DNA from: an uncultured Bdellovibrio sp.
Lineage (GTDB): Bacteria; Bdellovibrionota; Bdellovibrionia; Bdellovibrionales; Bdellovibrionaceae
Assembly (NCBI GenBank): GCA_963932905.1
Contig: CAWVRN010000030.1
Location: 1-61,481, forward strand
Reading direction: 5' to 3'
DNA length: 61,481 bases
The translations under genes were made by a program, and so were the position numbers. Numbering within the stretch: position 1 is the stretch's first letter; the number at the start of each line of letters is the position of its first letter. Below are positions 6,713-35,106 of this stretch, one piece after another. The notes beneath the pieces were generated by a model, which was not told where the DNA came from, ran no database searches, and worked only from the letters and a program-made list of their open reading frames with translations.

Positions 6713-7564
6713 ATGAAATTAGAAAATGCTCGTATGGATCATGTGAGCGCAATTAAAAAGTATATCGAAGCCATCGTCGATGCCGATGATATGCACGCGC
6801 TTGTTATAGAAGGACCTCCTGGTTGGGGCAAAACTACTTCCGTCGAAGAATCCCTAAAGCTTGCCAAGATTGAGGCACACCATTTAGGAGCCTATTCAAC
6901 GCCGCTTAATCTATATAATTTTTTAGCTGAATATTTTGATCAAGTGGTACTTTTAGATGATTGCGCCGGGATATTTAATGATCCAAGCGCGATGGCAATT
7001 CTAAAAGCAGCCACTTGGCCATCTAAAGGAAACAAGCGTCTTGTTAAATGGGGATCGACTTCATCTAAAGCGAGTACTTCTGAATTTGAGTTTCTAGGAA
7101 AATTAATTATAGTTTGTAATTCATTTCCAAAAACTGCCGATGGTGAGGCAATAAAATCCCGAGGTTATTCCAGAAAAATTGATATTACGTTAACCGAAGC
7201 TAAAAAGTTTTTGCTAACTGCCGCTTCTCAAAAAAGATGGTATCCAAAAACAAAACTAGCAGTAGAGGTAGTCGATTTTTTGCTGAGTCATGCGACTGAA
7301 AGTACGCTATCTCAAATCAGTTTTAGAACCTTAAAAAAGGGCTATAGATTAGCCGAAGTCCATCCTGATTCATGGAAGGAATTATTCTCTGATACTCTTC
7401 CTAAGGGATCTCTCGATCCAGAAACTTTAGTTAAAGAACTCGCTAGGCAAGGCCTTAAGGTTAAAGACCAAGCCAGAATCTTTAGCGATAGAACCGGCAA
7501 GAAAGTGAGATCGTTTTATAATTATAGAAAAGAAGCAAGAGTTGGCAGAAATGCCGCAAAATAA
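6713..7564 (+). CDS. P-loop AAA-type ATPase with possible C-terminal HTH
   Basis: Walker A GPPGWGKT, Walker B VLLDD, sensor IIVCN; basic helical C-terminus. Confidence 0.75.
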   Translation: MKLENARMDHVSAIKKYIEAIVDADDMHALVIEGPPGWGKTTSVEESLKLAKIEAHHLGAYSTPLNLYNFLAEYFDQVVLLDDCAGIFNDPSAMAILKAATWPSKGNKRLVKWGSTSSKASTSEFEFLGKLIIVCNSFPKTADGEAIKSRGYSRKIDITLTEAKKFLLTAASQKRWYPKTKLAVEVVDFLLSHATESTLSQISFRTLKKGYRLAEVHPDSWKELFSDTLPKGSLDPETLVKELARQGLKVKDQARIFSDRTGKKVRSFYNYRKEARVGRNAAK

Positions 7565-7582: not shown

Positions 7583-7915
7583 TTAGGAAAGTCTTCGATT
7601 AATACGATCAAAAACTTTAAAAGCTGATTTGAAATCTTTTTTATCATCTTCGTTTAGAACAAAATTTGCAGGTGCTATTAGTTTTAATGGATCAATATTC
7701 AGGGTCGCGGCAAGAGTAGAGATCGTCGAGAGCCTAACGTCAGAAACTAGCAGATTTTCTATTTCGTTTATCGTGGATATTGAAACCCCTGATACCTTTG
7801 AGAGTTTATTTTGCGAAAGGCCATTTTGCTCTCGGTAATATTTAAGCATACTTCCTAGGTGCCTCACGAGGCGATTGAGCTGCTTATCATTGTAATGTTT
7901 AACACTTCTTGGCAT
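7583..7915 (-). CDS. XRE-family HTH regulator
   Basis: LKYYREQNGLSQNKLSKVSGVSISTINEIEN. Confidence 0.9.
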   Translation of the reverse strand: MPRSVKHYNDKQLNRLVRHLGSMLKYYREQNGLSQNKLSKVSGVSISTINEIENLLVSDVRLSTISTLAATLNIDPLKLIAPANFVLNEDDKKDFKSAFKVFDRINRRLS

Positions 7916-8004
7916 ACGACCCCTGTTCTCCGTAAAGGTAAATATACGGAAAAGGAGCAATGCTCGGGTATTTCTCTATTTCATAATACTATCGTTTATA
8001 AAGT

Positions 8005-8045: not shown

Positions 8046-8166
8046 TCAGCGATATTTGTCTGACACCAGAGTGGCATCAGCGCAGGAGTAATGACCTGGA
8101 CATAGCCTTGGCACGCAGATGTAATCCGTAGACGACATCTTCCGGCCGTTTTTCTTGAGCTGTGTG

Positions 8167-8291
8167 CTCACGAGGCGGAACCCCACATTGTTGTTGCGAT
8201 TACCAGGCGAGTTGTTGTTCCGATTACCCGAACGCAAGTTCTGCGCATTGTTGTTCCAACTACCGCCACGGATGACGCGGTTAGAGCCCGT
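8167..8291 (-). repeat. DGR template repeat (TR)
   Basis: 125-bp ungapped match to 10556-10680; 16 mismatches, all at TR adenines; 13 AAC/AAT codons. Confidence 0.97.
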
Positions 8292-8302
8292 AATGTTGGT
8301 CA

Positions 8303-9316
8303 TTACACCGTATTTAATGATTCTTTAAAAATGCCCCTCCTGACAGACAATGAGTTTACATGACTGACATGTGCGACAATACTTCCCACAGAATTTATCA
8401 AGTCCCTTTCGGAAACATGCCCCTTTTTAAACTGAATCTCTTTTTTTCTAATTTTGATTCTCATGCGAGATAAGTTTTCTCTTTTGAGTCGAATAAGCTG
8501 CGGGAAAATTCGAAATCCTAAGAATGGAATCCCTTCAGACACAGGAGCTATCTGAGTTACCTTTTCTTTAAGTTCGATCTTCAGGACTTGAGTTACAAAT
8601 TGATCAATTTTTGAATGTAAATCCCAAAGTTCCTTTTTGCTGTCTGCAAAACAGATAAAGTCATCCATGTAGCGGACATAACCTTTTATTCCGAATCGAT
8701 CTTTGATAAGGTGGTCCAATTCGCCTAGATATAAATTTGCAAAATGCTGGCTGGTCAGATTTCCAATCGGAAGACCGCGACCCGCTAAATTTCCAGGGAC
8801 TTTATGGTCAATTATCAGATCAAGAACCCAAAGTAGATCCTTATCTTTAAAAAGCCTTCGTAAGATATTTTTTAAGACTTGGTGGTCGATACTTTCAAAA
8901 AACTTTTTAATGTCACACTTTAGATAATATGGGTACTTTCGGGCGAATTCTTGGCATCTTGAAACAGCAAGGTGCGCGCCTTTGCCAACACGACAGGCGT
9001 AGCTATCCTTGATAGACCTGCTTTCAAAAATGGGTTCGATAATGTTGCAAATAGAGTGGTGAACAACTCGATCTCTAAAATCAGAACTGCATATTTTCCT
9101 GACCTTTGGCTCCGTTACTTCAAACTGCGAATAAGGACGAGGTTGATATGTTTTGTCGCCAAGTTGTTGGTGTAGCAAAATCAATTCATTTTCGAGATTA
9201 AAATTAAAAGTGATCACCGAATTCTTTGCTTTCTTCCCGCGCATAGATTTTTTTGCAGCCAAGAGTAAATTTTCAAATGTAATGATCCTTATGTAAAGAT
9301 TAGCGTATCTTTTCAT
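8303..9316 (-). CDS. DGR reverse transcriptase
   Basis: [43 protein letters not shown]; adjacent to TR and avd. Confidence 0.97.
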
Positions 9317-9689
9317 GATCATCCTGTTGCTGCTTCATCCATCCACCGAGCATTTTACCGACTTCATTTATTAAAAATGAGGCGTGTTCATACGACTTTC
9401 GAGATAAAAACCTCAGTTCAAAGCAAATCCGTATTAAAATACGAATTTTTTCTAAGTTCATATTGGCTCGTCGTAGTACAGTGCCTTTATTTCGGCTGTA
9501 TCTTGCTTCAACCAGATCTTCAACAATCTGCAATGACAGGTTCGTAAGGCGATCAGTGAAATTGAATCGGGCTTTTTTCGGAAAACCGTCTAAAATCACT
9601 AGTAACCACTTTAGAAAATCCATCCACTTGATAAAAATGGGCAGATCTTTTTTTGAATCTGATTGAAGTTCTTTGTGATCATGCTCCAT
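9300..9689 (-). CDS. avd: DGR accessory variability determinant (Avd-like four-helix bundle)
   Basis: FPKKARF...EVGKMLGGW; overlaps the RT start. Confidence 0.9.
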   Translation of the reverse strand: MEHDHKELQSDSKKDLPIFIKWMDFLKWLLVILDGFPKKARFNFTDRLTNLSLQIVEDLVEARYSRNKGTVLRRANMNLEKIRILIRICFELRFLSRKSYEHASFLINEVGKMLGGWMKQQQDDHEKIR

Positions 9690-10188
9690 CTGAATTTGTC
9701 TCAATTGGCTCAGGTTTGGTTTCGATATTTATTTTTGAAATCGACAGAACTTCTTCACCGTATTTTTCAGCTTTACCTTTTCCGATCCCATCAATCTGCG
9801 TAAGCTCCGAAAGTGACTGAGGTCTCTTTTTTACAATCATTGCCAATTGTTGATTCGTAAATAAAATATAGGGCGGCACACCTTCTTTTTTGCACCGCTG
9901 AGATCTCCAATCGCGTAGAATATTAAAAAGGCCCATGTCGGCCTCAGTCAGTAGCTTCTTCCAGTCTTCATCTTGATCGCGTTTTTCTTTTGGCGCATTT
10001 TTCGATTCAATTTCGGCTCGATGAGGAAAGTATCTTAAGATGAAGGTCAGATAGGGGACATCATTTTTTATAAAATGAAAATCTGTGATTGAGATGACTT
10101 CTTTATCTTTTAAAAAATCTCGAACTTCCTGATCATTGAATCCACCGTAAATTGAATCAAAAGCCAACGATATGACTTTGATCAACAT
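9679..10188 (-). CDS. HRDC-domain DGR accessory protein
   Basis: LRDWRSQRCKKEGVPPYILFTNQQL...IDGIGKGKAEKYG; probable start MLIKV after GGAGAGGGG RBS. Confidence 0.88.
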   Translation of the reverse strand: MLIKVISLAFDSIYGGFNDQEVRDFLKDKEVISITDFHFIKNDVPYLTFILRYFPHRAEIESKNAPKEKRDQDEDWKKLLTEADMGLFNILRDWRSQRCKKEGVPPYILFTNQQLAMIVKKRPQSLSELTQIDGIGKGKAEKYGEEVLSISKINIETKPEPIETNSDGA

Positions 10189-10442
10189 TATTTCCCCTCT
10201 CCAAGCATGTTGAATATCGCAAAGGCGATTTTCTATGACCTTGAAGTGTGTTAGCACTCCGATGTTTTTCTATAAACTAATATTTTACTCTACAAAGAAC
10301 AGTCGAGCCGAGTTCTTCTAAGCTTGGACGAAACAACCGATTGATTCGGTTAACCAATTTTATAACTTAATTGAATTATAAAAATATTTCTATTTGCGCA
10401 CAGCAAAATAGGTGGAAAAAATTAAAAATTTTGGCTTACGCC

Positions 10443-10542: not shown

Positions 10543-13500
10543 CTACGGGCTAGCCCTCACGAGGCGGAACCCCACATTGTAGTAGCGAATACCAGGCGAG
10601 CCGTTGTTCCGAGAACCCGAACGCAAGAACTGCGCACTGCTGCCCCAACCACCGCCACGGATGACGCGGCGAGAGCCCGTTGCAGGGCCCTGTGGATCTA
10701 TACCACCAGGAAGATTACTACCATACCAATCAGCGAGCCATTCCCAAACATTGCCGTGAATATCATAGATAGGCTTGCCGTTGATCATGATTGGCTTTTT
10801 AAGTCCCACAGGATGAGTTTTTGATCCAGCGTTGCCACTGTACCATGCGTAGTCTCCTAAATTTTTATCCGTGTTACCATGAGCGTAGTCTCCAGTTGAA
10901 AGACCTCTCATTCGGGCCACATACTCCCATTCGGCTTCAGTAGGCATTCTGTAGTCGTCATCTTTTTTATGCCCTGGGAATATCTCCGCCATTGCCTTTT
11001 GAACCTGTGGATCATTAAGCTTTGAAAGCTCATTTACAGCCATATTCCAACTACCAATATCTGTATGGGATACTTGCTCAACTGGATTCATATCGCCCTT
11101 AAAGTTGGACGGGTCAGCTGTTAAACTACTGTATTTCCCTTTTAGGTGAACGCTTGCAAGGTTAACAATATCTTTCCACATTTTTTGCGTGGTCTGAGTA
11201 GACATCATTTCAAATGGTTTCGTTATTGTGACAGACACTTTTTCAGCATCGCCCATTCTAAACTTGCCACCTGGTACTTTAACAAAGTCCACAATGGGCG
11301 TTCCATTCGGATAAAGAGCTGTCTTGATCTGGGCATTTCGCTCTTTTACTTCAAATTTTCTTGATTTTGATTCAAGTCTTATTTTTTCAATGAAATCTGC
11401 AATTTCATTTTTACCCAGAAGTCTTGCGTGGTCGACATCCGTAAACCCTAGATCGTCTTTATAATTTAGATCAAGCTTAGGGTTTACTACTAGCCATTCA
11501 ACAACAGTCTTTTGGTCCATGTGGATAGCTCTATGAAGAGTTGAAAACCCACCTTCATCTCTGGTGTTGATGTCAAATAACTTCAAAGCAACAAAAGCCT
11601 CAAGGGTTTTGATATCGCTCTTGGATACGGCATCGGACCATTTATCCGTTAAGCTATCAGCAAACTTCTTTCTTCGCTTGTCCGACGATTTTGACCACTG
11701 CCTGATTTCAGATGAAACTTGAGTTCTTTCAGTCTCGTCGAAGTTTTTAAAATCAAGACTTAACTCGTTTTGATTTTGTTCAGCTTTAATTAATAAAGCT
11801 TCGAATGCAGCAGCTTTGCGGATATTAAATGGAAGATCTTGTCTTTCGAGAATTTTTCCTAAATCCTTTTCAAATTCTTTCACTGAAAAAAGACCCAGTT
11901 TTTCTAGCTGTGACACAACTTGACCGCTAGACACATATTTTAAAACATCACTCGGGTCTTGAGAGTTTTTTAGGTTTAGCAAATCCTGAATGAGTTTATT
12001 TTTGTCTAGATCTTTATTTGCTACGAAGTTTTTATACTCGCGGCCTGGTCTGATTTCAGTATCCGCATCGACCGCTGTGGGCTCGTAAATCTTCACGGTC
12101 AATTTGTTATAAGCTCTCGAATAAGTATTCTTAAAATCATACTGATTTGGATGTGGAGCAAATGTTGTAAGCTTTTGAGAAAGTTTCGGAACGATCTCAT
12201 TTGCAACGAAATGCCTTGTTGTATCCATGTTGGACATCCCATTATGATCGCCGACATCTTCGGGAACACCCAATTTATAGCCTCTATCAGCAAGGCTCAT
12301 TGATACAGCTTGAAGAAAACTTGGAATTTGCTGATTTGGCACATTTTGAAGCTTATCAATAAAAGCAACTTTTTCAATTTGACCCGTTGTCGGGTTCTGG
12401 GCTTCGCCCAGAACAACTGTAATGTGTCCACTTGAATTAAAGTTGCTGTCAGTCATTGTGAAATAATTGTAATTGGGATCAAGGGCTTTTGAAAAGTAGG
12501 TTCTTGTTGAACAGTCAGATCCGCCTAAACACGAACGAAAGGGCGCTTCTTGAATCGAAAGACTTCTCACTCTAATTGTTTCGGTGGGCTTTGTCGTATA
12601 TCGCCCAACCAAGACCTCTTGTTCGAGCCTTTGAATATTTTGGTTCGGATTTTCATTCTTTGACAAGCCTGTTGGGAAATCAATTCTTAAACTCGCTTGG
12701 AGTTCCTGAAAGTGACCCGCAAACCCGATATCCATTGCGACGGCGTCTCGTTCATCTAAAACTTTTTTGAGCCCTTCGATTCGATCTAGAGCGTTTTTAC
12801 TTTTCAATAAGACTTGTGTCGCCTGGTTCCCGAAACCGACCGTGTGAATAAGGTCAACCATCGCTTGCCGGATGGTTTGGGTATTGCGGCCTTTTTTATC
12901 CATCCATTCTTGAATATACTTTAAGCTCGAATAGAGAGCCTTAACTTTCTTTTGATAGTCTTCTTTGTCATTTTTAAGGTCCGTAAGTAAATCGCGGTTA
13001 GCCTTTGAAATCAGACGATTCAAATAACTTTCAAATCTTTTTTTAGCGGCGGAATCAAATGCAGACTTAGCATTTCGGTAAGCTTCTTTGTCTGAAGCCA
13101 GTGAATCTTTACCTAGCTTACTTTGCATTTGTTTTATCGCATCTGGCATCTCAGCATCTTGGTAGTCTAAAACTTTTCTCCAAAATCCAAGATTGGCTTC
13201 AATTTGTAATAAATTATTACGTACTTCGCCAGCCGTCTGAATTTGTGATTTTAAATATTTAGCCAAAGATGCAGGCATCTCATAAACTTTTTCGACCTGG
13301 GAGATCTCGTACTCACGAAAGTGTGGTTTTTGAAGCTCTGGGTGTTTTTTTTGAATATCAGTTACAGACTTCAAAGTCTCGTTATTAACAGAAGTATTCG
13401 GGTCTCCAAAATAAAGTTTTCGATAAACATCAAACAAGTCGGCCTGTCCGGGCTGAAGCAACATCCCTTCAGTCATTGCCTGACCAAAAGATTTTAAATC

Positions 13501-13800
13501 CGAAACTTCATTTGGTTCTAGTTTTTTAGATGTTTTATTCAATTTTGATTGAGCTTGACTCGCTTTATAGAATTCTAAACACTTATTGCCATTTACTAAG
13601 CTACTTTCAACTCGACTAACTGATGGTTCTATTGAAACTCTTGCTTGGGGCTGGGGCGCTAGAGTTGATGTTGCTGTTGGTCTTGTTGTGCCAAATAGAT
13701 TCCTAAAAAAGCCTAAGACGTTGGCTTCGGACTGCGATGGTGAAAACATGGTACTACTTATTAAAATACCTAATACTAATTCTAAAAATCTTGATTTCAT
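10543..13800 (-). CDS. DGR target: exported 1085-aa protein with ankyrin repeats and C-terminal FGE-sulfatase-type C-lectin domain
   Basis: Signal peptide; GFSTLHRAI ankyrin repeat; RMPTEAEWEY, DIHGNVWEW, RVIRGG...VGFRLV; VR at 3' end. Confidence 0.93.
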   Translation of the reverse strand: MKSRFLELVLGILISSTMFSPSQSEANVLGFFRNLFGTTRPTATSTLAPQPQARVSIEPSVSRVESSLVNGNKCLEFYKASQAQSKLNKTSKKLEPNEVSDLKSFGQAMTEGMLLQPGQADLFDVYRKLYFGDPNTSVNNETLKSVTDIQKKHPELQKPHFREYEISQVEKVYEMPASLAKYLKSQIQTAGEVRNNLLQIEANLGFWRKVLDYQDAEMPDAIKQMQSKLGKDSLASDKEAYRNAKSAFDSAAKKRFESYLNRLISKANRDLLTDLKNDKEDYQKKVKALYSSLKYIQEWMDKKGRNTQTIRQAMVDLIHTVGFGNQATQVLLKSKNALDRIEGLKKVLDERDAVAMDIGFAGHFQELQASLRIDFPTGLSKNENPNQNIQRLEQEVLVGRYTTKPTETIRVRSLSIQEAPFRSCLGGSDCSTRTYFSKALDPNYNYFTMTDSNFNSSGHITVVLGEAQNPTTGQIEKVAFIDKLQNVPNQQIPSFLQAVSMSLADRGYKLGVPEDVGDHNGMSNMDTTRHFVANEIVPKLSQKLTTFAPHPNQYDFKNTYSRAYNKLTVKIYEPTAVDADTEIRPGREYKNFVANKDLDKNKLIQDLLNLKNSQDPSDVLKYVSSGQVVSQLEKLGLFSVKEFEKDLGKILERQDLPFNIRKAAAFEALLIKAEQNQNELSLDFKNFDETERTQVSSEIRQWSKSSDKRRKKFADSLTDKWSDAVSKSDIKTLEAFVALKLFDINTRDEGGFSTLHRAIHMDQKTVVEWLVVNPKLDLNYKDDLGFTDVDHARLLGKNEIADFIEKIRLESKSRKFEVKERNAQIKTALYPNGTPIVDFVKVPGGKFRMGDAEKVSVTITKPFEMMSTQTTQKMWKDIVNLASVHLKGKYSSLTADPSNFKGDMNPVEQVSHTDIGSWNMAVNELSKLNDPQVQKAMAEIFPGHKKDDDYRMPTEAEWEYVARMRGLSTGDYAHGNTDKNLGDYAWYSGNAGSKTHPVGLKKPIMINGKPIYDIHGNVWEWLADWYGSNLPGGIDPQGPATGSRRVIRGGGWGSSAQFLRSGSRNNGSPGIRYYNVGFRLVRASP
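10556..10680 (-). repeat. DGR variable repeat (VR)
   Basis: Adenine-specific mutated copy of TR; 11 codons altered. Confidence 0.97.
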
Positions 13801-16800
13801 TGCTTTAACCCTCGGTAAAATAATTCACATCGATTGGCTTTAACTGAACTCATTTTTAATGTTCGATCACGAATGTCATGATTACGTTTTACTTGGCTTG
13901 AAATTTTGTCTTCTTTTTGAAATCGTGTTTTCATAATTTCAAGTTCTGTTCCTGATAGCATTTGTCCTTTATAGTACTTTGTGAGAGTCTCAAATTCTTC
14001 CCCAGTTAAACTTTGCTTTTTCACAAGTTGAGCCGTTAAAAATCTGACAAGCCCTTGGTTGTCATTCAAAAAAATCTTGGCCTTCTCTTGAGCTTCCGTA
14101 ATTTCCTGCATGACGATTTGTTCAAAAAGCTCTTTCTTTTTCTCGCTGCCGACAAGATTTCCATCTTTATCAAGATTTGTTCCCCAGAGTTCAGATTTCA
14201 AACCAGCTTCGACGTAATATTTTCCGATTAGCTTCTTCATTTTCTCAAAATCAGAACCCCATCCAGTATCAGATGTAAACCCTGCAACCTCTTGAGAAAC
14301 TCGGCCCGCAACAATCCGAACAAGAGACTCTTTTAGTTCAACCACACCAGAACTTTGTTTATTAACTGAGTCATAAGCTGCATAGCCTAAATATTTTTGA
14401 CCGTCGCCCGCAGAGCCTGACTTAATTGTAACAAAACGAAGCTTTTGACCTGAAACTTCAGGCCTGTTTAAAATTGCATGTCCAATTTCGTGAAATGACA
14501 CCTTAATAAGTTCTTTGGGATTTGGTCTTGTCACATCTTCTTGTTTTTCAAGAAGATCATTCGTAAGCCGTGCTAAAACAACCCCAGCATTGGCTTTGTC
14601 GTGAACAAGAACCTCGACATAAAACTCTTCTTTTAAATTTTTGATAGCGTAATGCTTCTTGGCTCTTAGATCGGTTAACTTTATTTCAACTGATCTTGAA
14701 GACGCATTATCTTCTGTTGTGCCGCTTTCTAAAATAGCTGACGTAATAAGTCCTTGAATTTCACTTTCAAACTTATTTCTTAAAGACCGTCCGCCTTGAT
14801 CGTGGTTAAAGAAAACTTCAGTCGTCGTTTTTAAAACCTGATCTGGCAATAAAACTTCGAGGCCTGGGAATTGTTTTTTCAAATTCTTAAATCCGCCCTC
14901 TAGAGTTTTTCTTGCAATTTGCATCTTTGATTTATCTAAAAGGGGCTTTGTGTGAACAACGAGTTGAGCGCGGCCCAAGATAGCCTCTGGAAATCCACGA
15001 CGGCGAAGTTCACTTCTTACATTGGCTTCAGATTTGACTTTGTTGTAAATCGCTTCACGCATATCATCACCTGATACGCCAAAATAAAGATCTTGCAAAT
15101 CGTTTCCAGTCATCCAAATGACGATTTTAGATAGATCATATTTGCGACCTGTATTTGGTGAAACCCAAAAGCCTTCTTCCATAATATTGTAAAACTTGTA
15201 AAGAATCTGTTCTCGCTCTTGTGGGTTCTTGCCACCAGCATTTGAGATTTCATCTAAAATAAGAATACCGCCGTCTTTGATTTGAAGAAGTGCCTTTTCA
15301 AAAAGACCCATTTGATCTGATTTCACATACTGCGGATTAGCTCCGAAAATCTTAGTCAAATCTTCCTGACGAGAAATATCACCCATTGCGATAATCTGTG
15401 CCTTAGAGCTTGAGCCATAAAGCTCTTTTGCAAGCACCTTCGGAGTTTCAGTTTTTCCGGTTCCAGTTGAACCAACGGCTACAACCGTCATTGGCTTTCC
15501 GGTCGGGATGACTTTCCAATTTCTGATAGCGTTGATGGATTTAGTAACCATCTCTTCTTGTCCGAAAATTTCTTGGTTCACTCTTGATTCAAGCGTTTTT
15601 AAATCCTTCATATCTTCAGCGGAAAGGCTTTGGCCGTTACCTTTGAAGCTGTGATTCTGAAGCTCTACAGTCTTAGTCGGTGTCTGAACCGAAAAGGCCC
15701 AGTTTCTTTTGGCTCCGTTTTTAACAAGACCTACTTTGATTTCCTTTTCAGACGCAACTTGAGTGATTTCTCCAAAAAATCGCTCAACCGCGCGCGATAA
15801 GTCTCTCACTCCATCTTCTTTATTGTAGGTTTGCTCAGTAATATATTTAATGGCTTCATCAGATATCGAAATATTGATTCCATTTCGCTCTTTAAATGTT
15901 TTTTCACGTTTTGAAATTTCAAGTTTTGCTACTTTTATTGTCGTTTCTAAACTCAGCGGGTTTGCGACAAGGTATGTCCCGATTCGATTAACGATCTCAC
16001 GGGGCAGTTTGTAATTGCTGTCGGCTTCCGTTGGCTGCGTAAATAAATCTTTTAAGTCTTTTTGTGAAAATGAATCCACTCGTCTTTTGACTTCCTCATC
16101 GGACCAATTCGCATAGCCCTCTGGGAAAATTTGGTTTACACCGTGATTTGTAGTAGCCACGATTAAAAGGTTTGGAACTTTTACTCTTTTGCCATTTCCT
16201 TGAGTCACTTCGCCATTATCAAATAGATTCATCGCCAGTTCTTTAAGAGTTTCAGGGTGCATTTTTTCGATTTCATCAATCAATAAAACGCCACCGTATC
16301 GGCCTTTACCTGGGTTTTTCATAAATTCAATAAGGCTTCCAACTGTGTCCTTAAACCCATGTGTGCCCGGCCTTGGCCCGAGTAAACCCGTTAACGATGT
16401 GCTTCTGTCAGAAAAAGCAGCACCATCAATTTTGAAAAATCTGTGCTTCCCGCCGAATAAAACTTCAGCCATACTTTCAGCTAAATAGGTTTTCCCAACG
16501 CCCGTTGGGCCCATGAGCGCGACAACTTGTGGTTTGTCTCCAGATGACAGTAAAAGATTTCTGTAAAGGGACAATGTTGTATCAACCATTTTATCTTGTC
16601 CCAGGATTGAAGATTTTAATTCATCTTTCCGTGCTTCGACAAATTGATTGATCTCACTTAAATTCTGCGGATCTGCTGGAATCTTAGTTCTTCGCTTAAC
16701 AAAAGAGAAAAAATCTGATGCTGAAACACTCTTTTGATTTCTTTCGTGAGCTTCAATAGCTAAATCAACCATGACCTTGATCGGTCCATCAGGGCGAGCC

Positions 16801-17627
16801 ACATCGGGCAAAACTTTTTTGTAGTGCTTGACGATCTTCTCAACAATCTCGTCGTCTAGCTTTACGTCGTATCTTTTTTCAACAACTTCGCGCCAAGAAA
16901 GCTTGATGATTTCAATCGTTCGACTTTCAGTGAATTCAGCTACGCCAATCGGCGCAAAGCGCCTCATCATGGCTTCGTCAGAACCAAAGGCAAGCTGAAA
17001 TTCGCGCTCTGTCGTTGCACCAATCAAACGAATTCCATTTTCGTTGGCTGCATCCATCGAGGTTTTAAGAACATTCCACATATCGCTATCAACACTATGG
17101 ATTTCATCTATAAAAAGGATGACGGGCTTTTTTAGCTGCGCTTCAAGCTGTTTGACTGTTTCAACCAAAACTAAAGCCGCATCTTCGGGTTTCTTTCCAA
17201 GTCCCTTAATGCTGGCAGCCTCAAGTTGTATGATCTCAGCCGTTGCAATCTCTTGGCTAAAAACTTTTCCTGTTGGGATTTGGCCCTGAGCTATCATCTG
17301 TGCTATTTTTTCAACGACCGCCGTTTTTCCAACTCCGGCTTCCCCTAAAAGAACAGGGTTTTTACCTTTAATTCGGATCAGAGTATTTATGGCTTGCTGC
17401 GCCTCTTCAGTTCGATCAGCAATTGGTTGAAATTGTCCAGCCGCCAATTTCTTTCGAACATCATCAGTAAGTAGGCGTGGATTAAGGGAAAGAATTAACT
17501 TCCCAGGTTGTGATTGAGTAAGGGTCTCTCGAAGTTGAGCTTGCGCGAAGCTGCCAACGCTTAAAATCAAAATGGTGACCAACGCGTTAATCAGGTGTCT
17601 AAAGTTTTGACAAAGACTCATATCCAT
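13797..17627 (-). CDS. Exported Clp-like protein with three AAA+ modules and a C-terminal M41 (FtsH-like) metallopeptidase
   Basis: Signal peptide ending SFAQA; Walker A GEAGVGKT, GPTGVGKT, GSTGTGKT; Walker B FIDE, LIDE, ILDE; HEIGH, AGRVSQE, GWGSD; start uncertain (17621-17669). Confidence 0.85.
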   Translation of the reverse strand: MDMSLCQNFRHLINALVTILILSVGSFAQAQLRETLTQSQPGKLILSLNPRLLTDDVRKKLAAGQFQPIADRTEEAQQAINTLIRIKGKNPVLLGEAGVGKTAVVEKIAQMIAQGQIPTGKVFSQEIATAEIIQLEAASIKGLGKKPEDAALVLVETVKQLEAQLKKPVILFIDEIHSVDSDMWNVLKTSMDAANENGIRLIGATTEREFQLAFGSDEAMMRRFAPIGVAEFTESRTIEIIKLSWREVVEKRYDVKLDDEIVEKIVKHYKKVLPDVARPDGPIKVMVDLAIEAHERNQKSVSASDFFSFVKRRTKIPADPQNLSEINQFVEARKDELKSSILGQDKMVDTTLSLYRNLLLSSGDKPQVVALMGPTGVGKTYLAESMAEVLFGGKHRFFKIDGAAFSDRSTSLTGLLGPRPGTHGFKDTVGSLIEFMKNPGKGRYGGVLLIDEIEKMHPETLKELAMNLFDNGEVTQGNGKRVKVPNLLIVATTNHGVNQIFPEGYANWSDEEVKRRVDSFSQKDLKDLFTQPTEADSNYKLPREIVNRIGTYLVANPLSLETTIKVAKLEISKREKTFKERNGINISISDEAIKYITEQTYNKEDGVRDLSRAVERFFGEITQVASEKEIKVGLVKNGAKRNWAFSVQTPTKTVELQNHSFKGNGQSLSAEDMKDLKTLESRVNQEIFGQEEMVTKSINAIRNWKVIPTGKPMTVVAVGSTGTGKTETPKVLAKELYGSSSKAQIIAMGDISRQEDLTKIFGANPQYVKSDQMGLFEKALLQIKDGGILILDEISNAGGKNPQEREQILYKFYNIMEEGFWVSPNTGRKYDLSKIVIWMTGNDLQDLYFGVSGDDMREAIYNKVKSEANVRSELRRRGFPEAILGRAQLVVHTKPLLDKSKMQIARKTLEGGFKNLKKQFPGLEVLLPDQVLKTTTEVFFNHDQGGRSLRNKFESEIQGLITSAILESGTTEDNASSRSVEIKLTDLRAKKHYAIKNLKEEFYVEVLVHDKANAGVVLARLTNDLLEKQEDVTRPNPKELIKVSFHEIGHAILNRPEVSGQKLRFVTIKSGSAGDGQKYLGYAAYDSVNKQSSGVVELKESLVRIVAGRVSQEVAGFTSDTGWGSDFEKMKKLIGKYYVEAGLKSELWGTNLDKDGNLVGSEKKKELFEQIVMQEITEAQEKAKIFLNDNQGLVRFLTAQLVKKQSLTGEEFETLTKYYKGQMLSGTELEIMKTRFQKEDKISSQVKRNHDIRDRTLKMSSVKANRCELFYRGLKQ

Positions 17628-17742
17628 TCCCTTCTGTAGAGCCCTCTGAGTGATTGTTTTATCAAGCACGACGACTCATATATGAGGAATACAAGTATTA
17701 TGCCGTTTGACGATATTTAATTTGCCAATCGTTTCATTATGT

Positions 17743-20925: not shown

Positions 20926-22032
20926 TTACTTCCCGTTTGAAACGAGCTTAAAAGTCCTGGGCCTTTGCCTTTCTTCATTCGTAGCTGATTTAGTGGAAAA
21001 TGAAACCACGCTTGATCGCGATTCTAAAAATCCCGGAGCCAAATGCGCGTACTTCAGAGTCATCATTGGGCTGGAATGCCCTAGAAGACCTTGAAGTTCA
21101 GTTAAGCTTCCGCCGTTCATAATGTAATGACTGGCAAACGTATGCCTAAGATCGTGAATTCGAATTTCTCGAACTTCGGCCTGACCACAAATGTGACCAT
21201 GAATTTTACGAATCGTTCGATGATCGTGACGACTGCCATCGGGTCTATGGATCAAAGGTGTGTCAGGATCTAAATACTTTGTTTGAGCTTTGTAAAACTC
21301 GAAAGCCTCAAATAGGGCATCGTTGATTCCTAACCATCGCTCGTTAAATCCTTTTGTCCGCTCTTGCACTTTGCCTGAGGCATCTTCTAGAATTCTCCAA
21401 ATCCGAATTCTTCGTTCACTAAGATCAATGTCCCGCCAGTCCAAAGCTAAGAGTTCACCGATGCGAGCACCGCAGTTTAGCGATAGTGAAGCATACAAGT
21501 AATGGGTATAGTGACTGACTTTGGCAGCCTCCAAATACTTTTCAGTTTCTTCGCCGGTTGCCCAATAGTCCCATTTCGTCATCGACTCTTTTAGTTTTGG
21601 AAGAGGGGTGATCGGATTCTTGCTAACTACATTTTGCCGAAGGGCATCGTTGTATAACTTGCTCACTAGGGCACGAACTCGATTTCGGGTGGCCGGTGCG
21701 AGTTTGTCTTTAGAAATAAGTCTGTCTAAAAAAGTTTCCCATTCCGTCGACATAATTTCAGATAACTTTCGATGGTCGAAAGCAGGAAAAATATATTTAC
21801 GAAGCCGAGCTTCTTCTTGATTAAAAGATGACAAAGGCTGACCATTGTTAAGTCGAGTTTTTAACCAGCCTAATACGTAGTCTTTGAAAACGGGCGAGGC
21901 CAGTTGAATATCAATGCCACTTTCTCGTAATTCTTTTTTTCGTTTCATTTCTAGATACCAACGATCGGCGTCGGTTTTTCTAGAAAAATATTTGCTTAGT
22001 CGAATATTCCTTTGCTTGAATACATTTGTCAA
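20926..22032 (-). CDS. int: Tyrosine recombinase/integrase
   Basis: Catalytic residues in GARIGEL, RTKG, HDLRH, LLGHSS, LKYAH. Confidence 0.95.
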   Translation of the reverse strand: MTNVFKQRNIRLSKYFSRKTDADRWYLEMKRKKELRESGIDIQLASPVFKDYVLGWLKTRLNNGQPLSSFNQEEARLRKYIFPAFDHRKLSEIMSTEWETFLDRLISKDKLAPATRNRVRALVSKLYNDALRQNVVSKNPITPLPKLKESMTKWDYWATGEETEKYLEAAKVSHYTHYLYASLSLNCGARIGELLALDWRDIDLSERRIRIWRILEDASGKVQERTKGFNERWLGINDALFEAFEFYKAQTKYLDPDTPLIHRPDGSRHDHRTIRKIHGHICGQAEVREIRIHDLRHTFASHYIMNGGSLTELQGLLGHSSPMMTLKYAHLAPGFLESRSSVVSFSTKSATNEERQRPRTFKLVSNGK

Positions 22033-32857: not shown

Positions 32858-33078
32858 ATCCCAGTTTTACCGTCATCTAGTCGCTTAGGCAACGTTATAA
32901 GCCTTTAAGGCTGGGCCCTGTAAGTTGTCGAAATATTGGTCGTCGTTTACCTTTTTTGGAAATTGGTAGGATATTATTGCGGGAGTGAATGCGACGGTGG
33001 AACTATTGGGGGTAAGACGCAGATAAAGCGGAGATTTTAGGGTTTGACCCTGCACTTATTTTGCAATGTCCACCATGT

Positions 33079-35106
33079 ATGATGAAACGCATGTTATATA
33101 TCGCAGTGGCAGTGCTGGTCGGTTTTCAAGTGTCCTCGTTCGCCAAGGAGGGGAGTGAGGTCGAAAAAAAGACCGTTGAGCTTTTAAAATTAGCCCGCGA
33201 GTCCGAAGAGTTCACGATGTATGGTGTAGATCAGTTGAACCTAAAAATAGCGATGGCATCCGTAGCGGAAAAGCAAACCGTTGATATCGATCATATCAAG
33301 CAGTTGTACTCTTCAATACAAGGCAAAGTAACCGTAGTTAAAAAAGAATTTGCGTCATTTAACGATTTTGTTGAAGAGGAAAGACAAACTTGGCCAGCTT
33401 CTGGTGATTTATCTATCGATATCCAGCGGATACTAGAGAAGGGTATTACGTTAATTGACCCGAGTTTTACTAACGAAGAAGATAAAGCGAGATGGGCCAA
33501 AAATGAATCGGCTCAACAAAAGTTCATGAACAAAATGGGCTTAGCGGGAATGGGAACATTCATGCAGATTTCGGCTCAATCGGCAGAACAGCAAGAAAAA
33601 TTTAAAAATGATGTGTTGAAAATGACAGACGGTTTTAGCAGCCTTGATAATAGTTTGCAAAATTCGTTTAAAGATATGTTTGCGGGCGAAGGCGATGGTT
33701 TTTTAAAAATCGCATTTCCCATCTTGATGGCTGAATATCTAGAAAATGTGAATCACAGAACAAAATTAAATATATTAGCTGGTATGTTTGAAGGATCATT
33801 TCCATTTACCCAGGATGGATTAGTGATGTCTTTGTTTTCAAACGCGGGTCCTCAGCTGCAGAAAATGGTACAAACCTTAGGGCGCAACTCGGCCCTAGCG
33901 CCTAAATGGCAAGCCTTGTTTCAAACGTTTGAATCGAACGTGCGTCCAGTTCCTTTCTGGCAAGTGGAGCAATTGTTAGCGCGTGCCAAATTTCCATTTA
34001 AAATTATTGATTTTCATCAAGAGCCTCTTGGTGTTGGTACTATCGCGCAAGTGCATTTAGCTAAGGTGCAATTACCTAGCGGTGAAATCACCGATTATGT
34101 ATTTCGGTTTATTAAGCCGGAAATGAAGCAAAAAGCTGAAGACGAGGCATCCGTGATCGAAAAAGCCTGCATCGCGATCGATCATCATCCAGATGTGGTT
34201 GGAAAAAATTATCCAAAACTAACCAGTATTGCAGATAACTCGTATACGATGATCAAACAGGATCTGGTTTTGAAAGAATCGGTTATCAATCAAAAGATAG
34301 GGCGAAAGGTATACAAACGATCGGATATCGATGTCCCTGTGGTAGACCTTTCATTGGATACAGAGCAGTTGTTTATGTACTCCACGAAAGCTTCGGGACA
34401 GAAAATTTCTAAATATTCTGTCCCGGTGCAACGTACATTAGTTAATCGCGTGGTGGAGGTATGGTTAGAAGAAGCGATGTTTGGTTCTGGGTATTTTCAT
34501 GCGGATTTACATCAGGGTAATTCGATGGCTTTGTTGCGTGATGATCAAAAAGGAAATGATCGCTACCTTAAATCGTTCTTGGATTTTGGTATGTTCGGAC
34601 AATTGACCAAAAGTGACCGCGTGAATCTGATGGGTTTAGGTATCGCGGTGAAAATGGGTAATGGCAAAATGCTGAGCCAAATCGCATGGCGGCTATCTAG
34701 TATCAAAGAGAACACAATTACTATGCCTGATCTAGCTGCTAAGTTGGATAAAAAATTTAAATCGCTAAATGGACAAGGATTAACAGTCGCAGATATGATT
34801 AAGTTTTTCCAAGAGGTAGGACTTGAATTAAATGACAACGTTTTAAATTATCTTCGTGGTTCAATTACGCTAGGCGATCAGTTGATTCAGGTTGACCCCA
34901 AAAATTCACTTTTGGGTATGTCTGTGAAGGTCGCGCTTAAACATCCAATTCAATTAATGAAGGTTTTAAAATTTAAGGAAATTTCGATGAAGGATATTAT
35001 GAAGCTTGGGTGGAAGCAGTATGTTTCTCCTAAATTGAATAAATCGGCGTCGATTGTGTCTGGAGCTGACATGTGTGTTGGTTTCTATCTAAAGCAAAAA
35101 CGCTAA
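33079..35106 (+). CDS. Exported ABC1/AarF/UbiB-family atypical kinase
   Basis: Signal peptide ending SFA; GPQLQKMVQ, PLGVGTIAQVH, FHADLHQGN, LDFG. Confidence 0.85.
   Translation: MMKRMLYIAVAVLVGFQVSSFAKEGSEVEKKTVELLKLARESEEFTMYGVDQLNLKIAMASVAEKQTVDIDHIKQLYSSIQGKVTVVKKEFASFNDFVEEERQTWPASGDLSIDIQRILEKGITLIDPSFTNEEDKARWAKNESAQQKFMNKMGLAGMGTFMQISAQSAEQQEKFKNDVLKMTDGFSSLDNSLQNSFKDMFAGEGDGFLKIAFPILMAEYLENVNHRTKLNILAGMFEGSFPFTQDGLVMSLFSNAGPQLQKMVQTLGRNSALAPKWQALFQTFESNVRPVPFWQVEQLLARAKFPFKIIDFHQEPLGVGTIAQVHLAKVQLPSGEITDYVFRFIKPEMKQKAEDEASVIEKACIAIDHHPDVVGKNYPKLTSIADNSYTMIKQDLVLKESVINQKIGRKVYKRSDIDVPVVDLSLDTEQLFMYSTKASGQKISKYSVPVQRTLVNRVVEVWLEEAMFGSGYFHADLHQGNSMALLRDDQKGNDRYLKSFLDFGMFGQLTKSDRVNLMGLGIAVKMGNGKMLSQIAWRLSSIKENTITMPDLAAKLDKKFKSLNGQGLTVADMIKFFQEVGLELNDNVLNYLRGSITLGDQLIQVDPKNSLLGMSVKVALKHPIQLMKVLKFKEISMKDIMKLGWKQYVSPKLNKSASIVSGADMCVGFYLKQKR

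Follow-up and report, generated by a model that had tools for sequence, protein, structure and literature searches.

A stretch of 61,481 nucleotides (nt) from an uncultured Bdellovibrio sp. of the Bdellovibrionaceae (GenBank assembly GCA_963932905.1, contig CAWVRN010000030.1), hereafter called the window, carries on its minus strand a gene for a protease which is, judged by its sequence, a self-contained unfoldase-protease with three Clp-type AAA+ modules and an FtsH-type zinc peptidase of the M41 family in one chain. The protease has a predicted signal peptide, and the stop codon of its gene overlaps the start codon of the target gene of a diversity-generating retroelement (DGR), the product of which is called the partner in the following. 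This putatively exported triple-AAA+/M41 protease is real, unusual and undescribed in the literature that was searched, and the mechanism proposed for it is partly supported. As the best explanation, which we hold tentatively and rate somewhat short of probable, two exported proteins from one coupled message, an AAA+/M41 protease and a variable lectin/ankyrin binder, would act together where another cell's nucleotides are present.

Domains and catalytic motifs of the protease

The protease gene and its parts are listed below, with the length of the open reading frame (ORF) given in amino acids (aa).

13797..17669 (-), triple-AAA+/M41 protease gene, 1290-aa ORF beginning with GTG 17669, likely start ATG 17621
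17538..17621 (-), predicted Sec signal peptide, 28 aa from M17: n-region MSLCQNFRH, h-region LINALVTILILSVGSF, cleavage motif AQA|Q (rule-based reading by inspection)
16770..17471 (-), D1, ClpA/B-type AAA+ module, residues 67-300: Walker A GEAGVGKT, Walker B DEIH
15720..16736 (-), D2, residues 312-650, AAA_2 and ClpB_D2-small: Walker A GPTGVGKT, Walker B IDEIEK, pore loop GTHGF
14670..15611 (-), D3, second D2-type module, residues ~687-1000: Walker A GSTGTGKT, Walker B LDEISN, pore loop PQYV
13986..14513 (-), FtsH-type Peptidase_M41 domain, residues 1053-1228: HEIGH at 14478-14492 (residues 1060-1064)
13800..13835 (-), C-terminal Cys tail NRCELFYRGLKQ, in which C1281 is the sole Cys of the mature protein

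An earlier note on this DNA, made from the letters alone, had described a signal peptide, a ClpA/B-like D1 module, two D2-like modules and a HEIGH-type M41 peptidase in one chain lacking a transmembrane anchor. This description was borne out by Pfam and NCBIfam matches, alignment and hydropathy, and by rule in the case of the leader. Only the start differs: the Shine-Dalgarno sequence GAAGGGA fits ATG 17621 better than the position 17627 given in the earlier note, which lies in the same frame, and the homologues start at ATG 17621. The NCBIfam models of ClpA, ClpV and ClpB align with residues 67-654, AAA_2 (Pfam) matches in two stretches with 142 bits, and ClpB_D2-small (Pfam) covers residues 572-630. 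The third P-loop module gives Torsin/AAA matches at 687-760 (Pfam/NCBIfam). Since D2 (345-650) and D3 (690-1000) align with 22% identity over 290 aa (E 2e-14), D3 is taken as a duplicated D2. Peptidase_M41 (PF01434) matches with 37.6 bits against a gathering score of 29.9.

For the analysis of motifs, the window protease was aligned with 10 near-full-length relatives from 5.8 billion proteins. In these 11 sequences, Walker A and B are invariant in all three AAA+ modules, as is HEIGH (11/11), and an aromatic pore-loop residue is kept in D2 and D3, with none in D1. D1140 is invariant as well and pairs with the D of ANDIER in the FtsH of Thermotoga maritima (2ce7); it is presumably the third Zn ligand.

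Predicted export of the protease

From signal-peptide rules we infer that the protease is exported. In every homologue with a complete N-terminus the small residues at -3/-1 are kept while the hydrophobic core varies, and the basic N-terminal flank is strongest in the relatives of ~1440 aa, e.g. with RRRR ahead of the h-region. Positive charges stand before and not after the h-region, so the protease body would lie outside. A Kyte-Doolittle scan of 10 family members found no further hydrophobic segment at or above 1.6. Moreover, 19 of 22 distinct proteases of the family contain, apart from the leader, no Cys other than one near the C-terminus, where ~12 Cys would be expected at the genome frequency of 0.99%.

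The n-region of many such leaders contains a further conserved Cys motif, C-[QKR]-[KN]-x-[RK]-[HQ], as in MSLCQNFRH (window 17600-17621, minus strand), MGHCRKSRH and MPVCQKIKH.

Distribution and forms of the protease family

For the census, relatives of the protease were counted at E≤1e-60. They occur in 20/182 genomes of the Bdellovibrionaceae and in 37/401 sampled genomes of the Bdellovibrionota, spread over at least 11 families, so that the system is not a one-off. At the same threshold none was found in one genus of 44 mostly complete genomes. Two size classes have three AAA+ rings (~1290 aa and ~1410-1456 aa), and a third of ~1116-1213 aa has two; a two-ring paralogue lies on contig C35 of the source genome. 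Within the family we counted 11 three-ring and 9 two-ring loci, which, like the related genomes, are non-independent samples. Proteases of all forms at these family-level loci have a signal peptide and a C-terminal tail with a single Cys.

The partner is a DGR target

The neighbouring gene and the DGR cassette comprise the following features.

10543..13800 (-), gene of the secreted DGR variable protein, 1085 aa (ORF call, Pfam, AlphaFold model)
13723..13800 (-), signal peptide of the variable protein: MKSR / FLELVLGILISSTMF / SPSQSEA|N, by inspection
13537..13590 (-), N-terminal Cys motif helix, residues 71-88, NKCLEFYKA (low predicted local distance difference test (pLDDT), unpacked against the rest of the model)
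12079..12585 (-), GNAT-like alpha/beta domain, residues ~406-574, after a helical domain at 100-400 (model, Foldseek, VIA)
11347..11814 (-), ankyrin repeats, residues ~663-818 (Ank_4 in Pfam; structural Z ~10)
10546..11295 (-), FGE-type C-type-lectin (CLec) fold domain, residues 836-1085, bearing the variable repeat (FGE-sulfatase, E 2.4e-33)
10556..10680 (-), variable repeat (VR), from comparison with the template repeat
9679..10257 (-), HRDC-domain DGR accessory gene (HRDC, E 1.4e-21)
9300..9704 (-), bAvd accessory variability determinant (bAvd, E 9.6e-23)
8303..9322 (-), DGR reverse transcriptase (RT; RVT_1, E 2.8e-20)
8167..8291 (-), template repeat (TR), inside an 85-aa FGE-like ORF at 8046-8303, from TR/VR comparison

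The 1085-aa protein is a genuine DGR target, as the earlier note had proposed, and is of the TvpA type. All internal mismatches between TR and VR (16/16) fall on adenines of the TR, 16 of its 31 adenines being changed, and the genes for HRDC protein, bAvd and RT sit between VR and TR, downstream of the target gene. An AlphaFold model of the full-length protein (pLDDT 88.2) and a separate model of residues 95-720 (pLDDT 92.3) contain a helical domain, a GNAT-like domain, helical and ankyrin repeats, and the FGE-type CLec domain. The latter superposes on TvpA (2y3c) with Z 27.6, a root-mean-square deviation of 1.9 and 36% identity over 211 residues, and is also similar to Mtd (Z 12.0) and TaqVP (Z 11.9). 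Foldseek with the full model gave matches to the CLec domain only. For the region of residues ~406-574, GNAT-type rows were obtained with Foldseek at E 0.02-0.1 and probability 0.75-1.0, and comparison by VIA with RimI, NatD, AAC, Hpa2 and Gcn5 gave middling scores of Z 6.5-7.0 with 122-155 residues aligned. No GNAT match was found on the variable protein with Pfam at E≤0.01, and this assignment, based on the model, is a lead only.

Signal-peptide-like N-termini are present in all homologues of the variable protein, and at least 90% of 79 aligned sequences have kept C74. The N-domain family of the partner comprises 346 clusters at E≤0.001 among 1.84 billion representatives; an ESM Atlas look-up with this N-domain gave a best score of 0.84, which is under the useful level.

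Three related loci show further forms of the variable protein. At L108 (G086:C27, 8915-11985) a break where the FGE domain begins divides the orthologous protein into two ORFs (778 aa, 245 aa), with the TR/VR pair and the RT intact. Downstream of the protease at L109 (G110:C35, 1-11790 and 15967-17726) there are 4-5 tandem full-length paralogues with 44-52% identity, and one divergent copy lies upstream; no RT was found there in 17.7 kb, which suggests diversification by gene duplication instead of a DGR. The partner gene beside the protease at L151 (G339:C5, 52-6876) is apparently broken into three by two copies of a pair of ORFs resembling an insertion sequence, and identical 166-aa ORFs lie at 504-1004 and 11978-12478.

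Linkage of protease and partner

Protease and partner gene overlap in the sequence ATGA at 13797..13800 (-), which joins the TGA of the protease to the ATG of the partner with GAGGG 9 nt upstream. The overlap had been pointed out in the earlier note and is confirmed here, indicating translational coupling of the protease and the DGR protein. The linkage of the two genes in other genomes, which followed from that proposal, was likewise found. At 8 of the 11 three-ring family loci a signal-peptide protein of ~1050 aa with a C-terminal FGE/CLec domain is encoded directly downstream, and the orthologues in paired loci are as low as ~31% in identity. A distant three-ring group has a partner with a different N-domain; of 20 loci in the other families of the phylum, 7 have this domain beside the protease. 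Parts of a DGR were detected at five loci (window, L107, L108, L113 and L153).

In genome G195 a single open frame of 2327 aa contains three AAA modules, M41 at 1115-1293, a low-complexity linker, the partner domain and, at 2116-2326, FGE-sulfatase (E 3.6e-31). Neither a signal peptide nor a Cys motif is present where protease and partner meet, which makes the frame a genuine fusion rather than two genes affected by a frameshift. Longer fused forms were not found at E≤1e-10 among 2883 candidates of the 5.8-billion-protein set, which is weak evidence. Overall, the coupling of protease and partner is supported by gene order, codon overlap and the fusion.

Three side observations concern partners at other loci. 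The N-domain of the distant-group partners (L113, L111, L114 and L153, and residues ~1360-1430 of the fusion at L155) contains LFGGTAAG … DADLAID, somewhat like the nucleotidyltransferase signature G[GS]…DxD, and Pfam gave no match. At L111 the gene between protease and partner (11132-11899, minus strand) encodes a Macro-domain protein of 255 aa, in which a signal peptide is followed by the Cys motif. A protein of ~605 aa with a weak FhuF match (Pfam) is encoded at L125 (6052-7881, plus strand), L128 (5207-7033, plus strand) and L130 (4169-5983, minus strand). In L125 and L128 its gene is located upstream, encodes a protease-like leader (…RHLINxLV…) and overlaps the next gene start; the order is reversed in L130, where the partner gene comes first.

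A terminal Cys motif on protease, partner and other signal-peptide proteins

The motif C-x-x-[LIVF]-[FYL] was found within the last 5-12 residues of all 11 three-ring and all 9 two-ring family proteases, and the mature N-terminus of the partner proteins bears a motif of the same type. All four distant-group partners examined contain exactly one Cys, which is that of the motif, and in the G195 fusion both motif cysteines are lost. Single facing cysteines and their loss in the fusion would fit a disulfide tether. At L113 the tail of the protease and the head of the partner share 9 identical residues, with a nucleotide match of only 21/39 across the two motif regions; identical peptides with divergent codons point to selection on the peptide and not on the DNA. 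For the same reason, an origin of the shared motif as a DNA repeat or recombination site was ruled out.

The motif is also present on other proteins, two of which are encoded in the window.

33061-35106 (+), ABC1-kinase protein with terminal Cys motif, ending in DMCVGFYLKQKR before the stop codon
60457-61431 (+), calcineurin-like phosphoesterase with terminal Cys motif, ending in NLCLSFY before the stop codon

A second set of signal-peptide ORFs carries the motif just after the signal peptide. With a crude signal-peptide filter, a relaxed form of the motif was enriched in the source genome at the C-terminus of signal-peptide-like ORFs (34/1496 vs 23/2340, Fisher p 0.0016) and just after the hydrophobic core (36/1496 vs 77/6600 internal windows, p 8.6e-5). 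The motif has the appearance of a terminal tag, so far undescribed, on secreted proteins, and no description of a Cys sorting motif of Bdellovibrio was found in the literature. Two known types of Cys signal were tried and ruled out. A lipobox, with [LVI][ASTVI][GAS]C closing the signal peptide, does not agree with the residue preceding the Cys (T, L, S, N, R, Q or K) or with an AXA site 2-48 residues upstream, and in a CaaX-type signal the Cys would stand at -4, not 5-12 residues from the end as at the family loci or up to 16 as at the phylum loci.

Tagged enzymes and the source of ATP

The periplasm is without ATP, and to our knowledge all characterised AAA+ proteases operate in an ATP-containing compartment of the producing cell. 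Other tagged signal-peptide proteins of the source genome and related loci carry a range of Pfam domains. These comprise ABC1 kinase, PRPP-synthetase-like, PhoH+PIN and UDPGP-like domains, furthermore MGDG-synthase-like, PARP-like (24 bits, below cut-off), Macro and SLOG domains, the nuclease-type domains ParB-like and EEP, and PLD, GDPD, PhoD, Metallophos, subtilase and peptidase C1-like domains. Since several of these enzymes need ATP, UTP, NAD or UDP-sugars, the protease would be one of a set that is sensible only where another cell's small molecules are present. The prey cytoplasm or the bdelloplast would be the site of action. The proposal of the earlier note that the protease acts where another cell's ATP is available thereby gains indirect support, which comes from tagged signal-peptide proteins of the kinase, nucleotidyltransferase, glycosyltransferase, PARP-like, Macro, PhoH and nuclease types.

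Comparison with known systems

The protease is in kind a putative fused FtsH/Clp hybrid that fails membership in both groups by topology, N-domain and equivalog scores. It shares with FtsH an M41 peptidase with HEXXH and a downstream Asp, fused to an AAA+ unfoldase, and aligns to 2ce7 over 178 residues. FtsH has one AAA module of the classic clade and two N-terminal transmembrane (TM) helices on either side of a periplasmic domain, and its AAA module faces the cytoplasm. The window protease, by contrast, has a signal peptide that looks cleavable, no further TM segment, three modules of the Clp type and a C-terminal Cys tail. In a Kyte-Doolittle scan, 10 family members showed one N-terminal hydrophobic segment only and no second TM segment as in FtsH. 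The FtsH equivalog TIGR01241 reaches 51 bits where 600 is the cut-off, and the match is confined to profile positions 407-597, i.e. the peptidase part.

With the class I Hsp100 proteins (ClpA, ClpB, ClpC, ClpV) it has D1 and D2 modules, D2-small and aromatic pore loops in D2 and D3 in common, and ClpA, ClpV and ClpB are its best NCBIfam matches. Their equivalog cut-offs are far from reached (ClpA 311.9 vs 993, ClpV 306.6 vs 885, ClpB 260 vs 1232). Unlike these proteins, the window protease has a third ring and a fused peptidase in place of the separate ClpP, it is devoid of Clp_N, and a middle domain as in ClpB was not noticed. Only ~22 residues separate the predicted cleavage site from D1, too few for Clp_N. 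Clp_N (PF02861) is also absent from the Pfam lists of the 10 near-full-length relatives, and it is present for most of the ordinary Clp matches ranked below them.

The partner resembles DGR proteins of the FGE/CLec type (Treponema TvpA; Mtd, TaqVP) in its C-terminal CLec fold with VR, the adenine-specific changes between TR and VR, and the presence of RT and Avd. It differs from the TvpA type in its very long N-terminal part (helical, GNAT-like, ankyrin), its Cys motif after the signal peptide and its coupling to an AAA+ protease. The prey-recognition fibres of Bdellovibrio, reportedly described by Caulton et al. in 2024 as chimeric trimeric fibres in a related lineage, are similar in having variable binding modules for prey handling; they are different in that no DGR targets coupled to an ATPase are involved.

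Closest among published systems are conflict systems that combine NTPases of the AAA+ type and proteases with a DGR-diversified FGE/CLec sensor domain (Kaur et al. 2020, PMC7159879; Dore et al. 2024, PMC10907252), including an 'FtsH ternary system' (Kaur et al. 2020, PMC7159879). In the parts of PMC7159879 that were examined, these have MoxR-vWA cores and FtsH-type double AAA modules with an inactive first domain, and the term 'signal peptide' occurs 0 times in its text. As far as those parts go, the window locus differs from such systems by the absence of MoxR/vWA, by Clp-type modules, by intact motifs in three rings and by signal peptides on both proteins. No description of an exported AAA+ or M41 protease was found in the literature, and the terms AAA, FtsH, Clp, M41, retroelement and ankyrin are all absent from PMC11656739. 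We see a small but serious chance that the protease-DGR arrangement as a whole represents a new type of system.

Genomic surroundings

The protease-DGR cassette may be located on a mobile island; a tyrosine integrase gene (20926-22032, minus strand) lies 3 kb upstream of the protease and further ORFs flank the DGR. These are a 283-aa P-loop ORF (6713-7564, plus strand) with a weak nSTAND3 match, which has an ORF of the same size at the equivalent position in genome G177, and a helix-turn-helix (HTH) gene (7583-7960, minus strand). A lookup of sequencing runs for the window gave 8 runs, all of DNA or unknown type and none listed as RNA, in which the word share reached 0.28 at most.

Proposed joint action of protease and partner and alternative explanations

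According to the explanation that we prefer, protease and partner would both be exported by the Sec route from one translationally coupled message. Both would leave the producer's cytoplasm. As the periplasm does not provide ATP, they would act together in a compartment containing another cell's nucleotides, either the cytoplasm of the prey or a leaky bdelloplast. There, the AAA+ stack would unfold and degrade proteins, and the lectin/ankyrin protein would contribute a variable binding specificity, either for a substrate or for a receptor, with the adjacent DGR rewriting the ligand-binding face of the lectin domain. The single cysteines C1281 of the protease and C74 of the partner might link the two chains or act as a shared secondary sorting tag.

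Several observations weigh against joint action. No CLec neighbour occurs at any of the 9 two-ring family loci; the three-ring loci L110 and L118 have other neighbours without CLec, and at L112 the contig ends 1.1 kb downstream. In the phylum set the FGE part is present at only 3 of the 20 loci (L151, where it is broken, L153 and L155), and most protease loci are without a DGR. The N-domain family of the partner was detected in 19 of the 182 Bdellovibrionaceae genomes, 12 of which contain no protease at E≤1e-60, and at three protease-free loci (L125, L128 and L130) the partner-family gene is paired with the signal-peptide protein of ~605 aa, which has the same C-terminal motif. Among unfused proteases of the phylum, 15/19 have a Cys in the last 16 residues and 4/19 are without the motif. 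In the source genome ~25 ORFs with signal-peptide-like N-termini, scattered over many contigs, end in C-x-x-F-Y plus 0-5 residues, so the Cys motif alone cannot be a pair-specific dock. Cognate motifs of protease and partner are more alike than non-cognate ones, which favours joint action (2.44 vs 1.29 of 8 positions identical; p 0.0085 by permutation of 9 pairs, a near-duplicate having been dropped), but this result is driven mainly by two pairs and was obtained from related loci that are not independent. The partner has a putative enzyme domain of its own, the GNAT-like one, and need not be the substrate-selecting adaptor suggested in the earlier note. Finally, the predatory lifestyle of the source organism is inferred only from the taxon names of its relatives.

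It is rather unlikely, in our judgement, that the two proteins are instead independent effectors which share an operon and a sorting tag and form no complex, the protease being a general shredder of foreign proteins and the DGR protein aiming its own GNAT-like domain or just binding prey. Such independence would agree with the partner family having a different partner in those genomes where the protease is missing, with the majority of protease loci lacking a CLec protein or DGR, with the GNAT-like fold and with the occurrence of the Cys motif on many unrelated secreted enzymes. It is difficult to combine with the clean natural fusion in G195, with an adjacency kept down to ~31% identity and across families, with the overlap of stop and start codon, and with the single unpaired Cys at the facing terminus of each far-group partner, both cysteines being lost in the fusion.

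We regard it as improbable that the protease is not exported at all. The N-terminal stretch would then be an uncleaved anchor or non-functional, the protease would work on the cytoplasmic side of the producer like FtsH, and its adjacency to the DGR would reflect co-mobility on an island, for which the integrase (20926-22032) and HTH genes nearby could be adduced. It would also agree with the general knowledge that AAA+ machines need ATP and that every characterised relative is cytoplasmic or membrane-anchored. Against a cytoplasmic location stand the positive charges ahead of the h-region together with the conserved small residues at -3/-1, the missing second TM segment of FtsH type, and the Cys depletion of the mature protease down to one terminal Cys. 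The same tail motif is moreover found on classically secreted proteins (subtilase, PhoD, GDPD, nucleases), and the pairing recurs in genomes of several families, beyond this island. Quite improbable is also a role as a processing machine, in which the exported AAA+/M41 protein unfolds, matures or helps to translocate Cys-tagged secreted proteins including its neighbour, with the motif as recognition tag. Protease loci across the phylum are indeed crowded with tagged signal-peptide proteins, the motif is placed at termini, where AAA+ machines usually engage their substrates (general knowledge), and the protease itself bears it. Yet the tagged repertoire of the source genome is distributed over many contigs, many genomes have partner-family proteins and no protease, a permanent fusion of substrate and protease as in G195 is hard to reconcile with processing, and the producer's periplasm would still be without a source of ATP.

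Joint action of the two exported proteins can be extended to a more specific model, which we consider unlikely as a whole. In this model an exported four-tier protease of three AAA+ rings and an M41 ring, disulfide-tethered through C1281-C74 to a DGR-reprogrammable lectin/ankyrin subunit, would be a 'targetable proteasome' running on the ATP of the victim. A whole set of enzymes directed at the prey, namely kinases, nucleases and nucleotidyl-, glycosyl- and ADP-ribosyl-transferases, would be labelled by the terminal CxxFY/CxxLL motif, which would then be a new secondary sorting or coupling signal.

Meaning for predatory bacteria

The route by which the hydrolases of predatory bacteria reach the contents of the prey is still poorly understood. 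If the proposed export is true, an AAA+ protease family built for export would be a new use of AAA+ machinery, and a bacterium would exploit the ATP of another cell to destroy the proteins of that cell. Through the link to the DGR, targeted hypermutation would be joined with a machine for degradation and not with an adhesin or a sensor in the cytoplasm, in an arrangement of 'variable aim plus fixed weapon'. If the terminal Cys motif is a sorting or coupling signal, it would also provide a sequence handle for listing the secreted enzymes of predatory bacteria.

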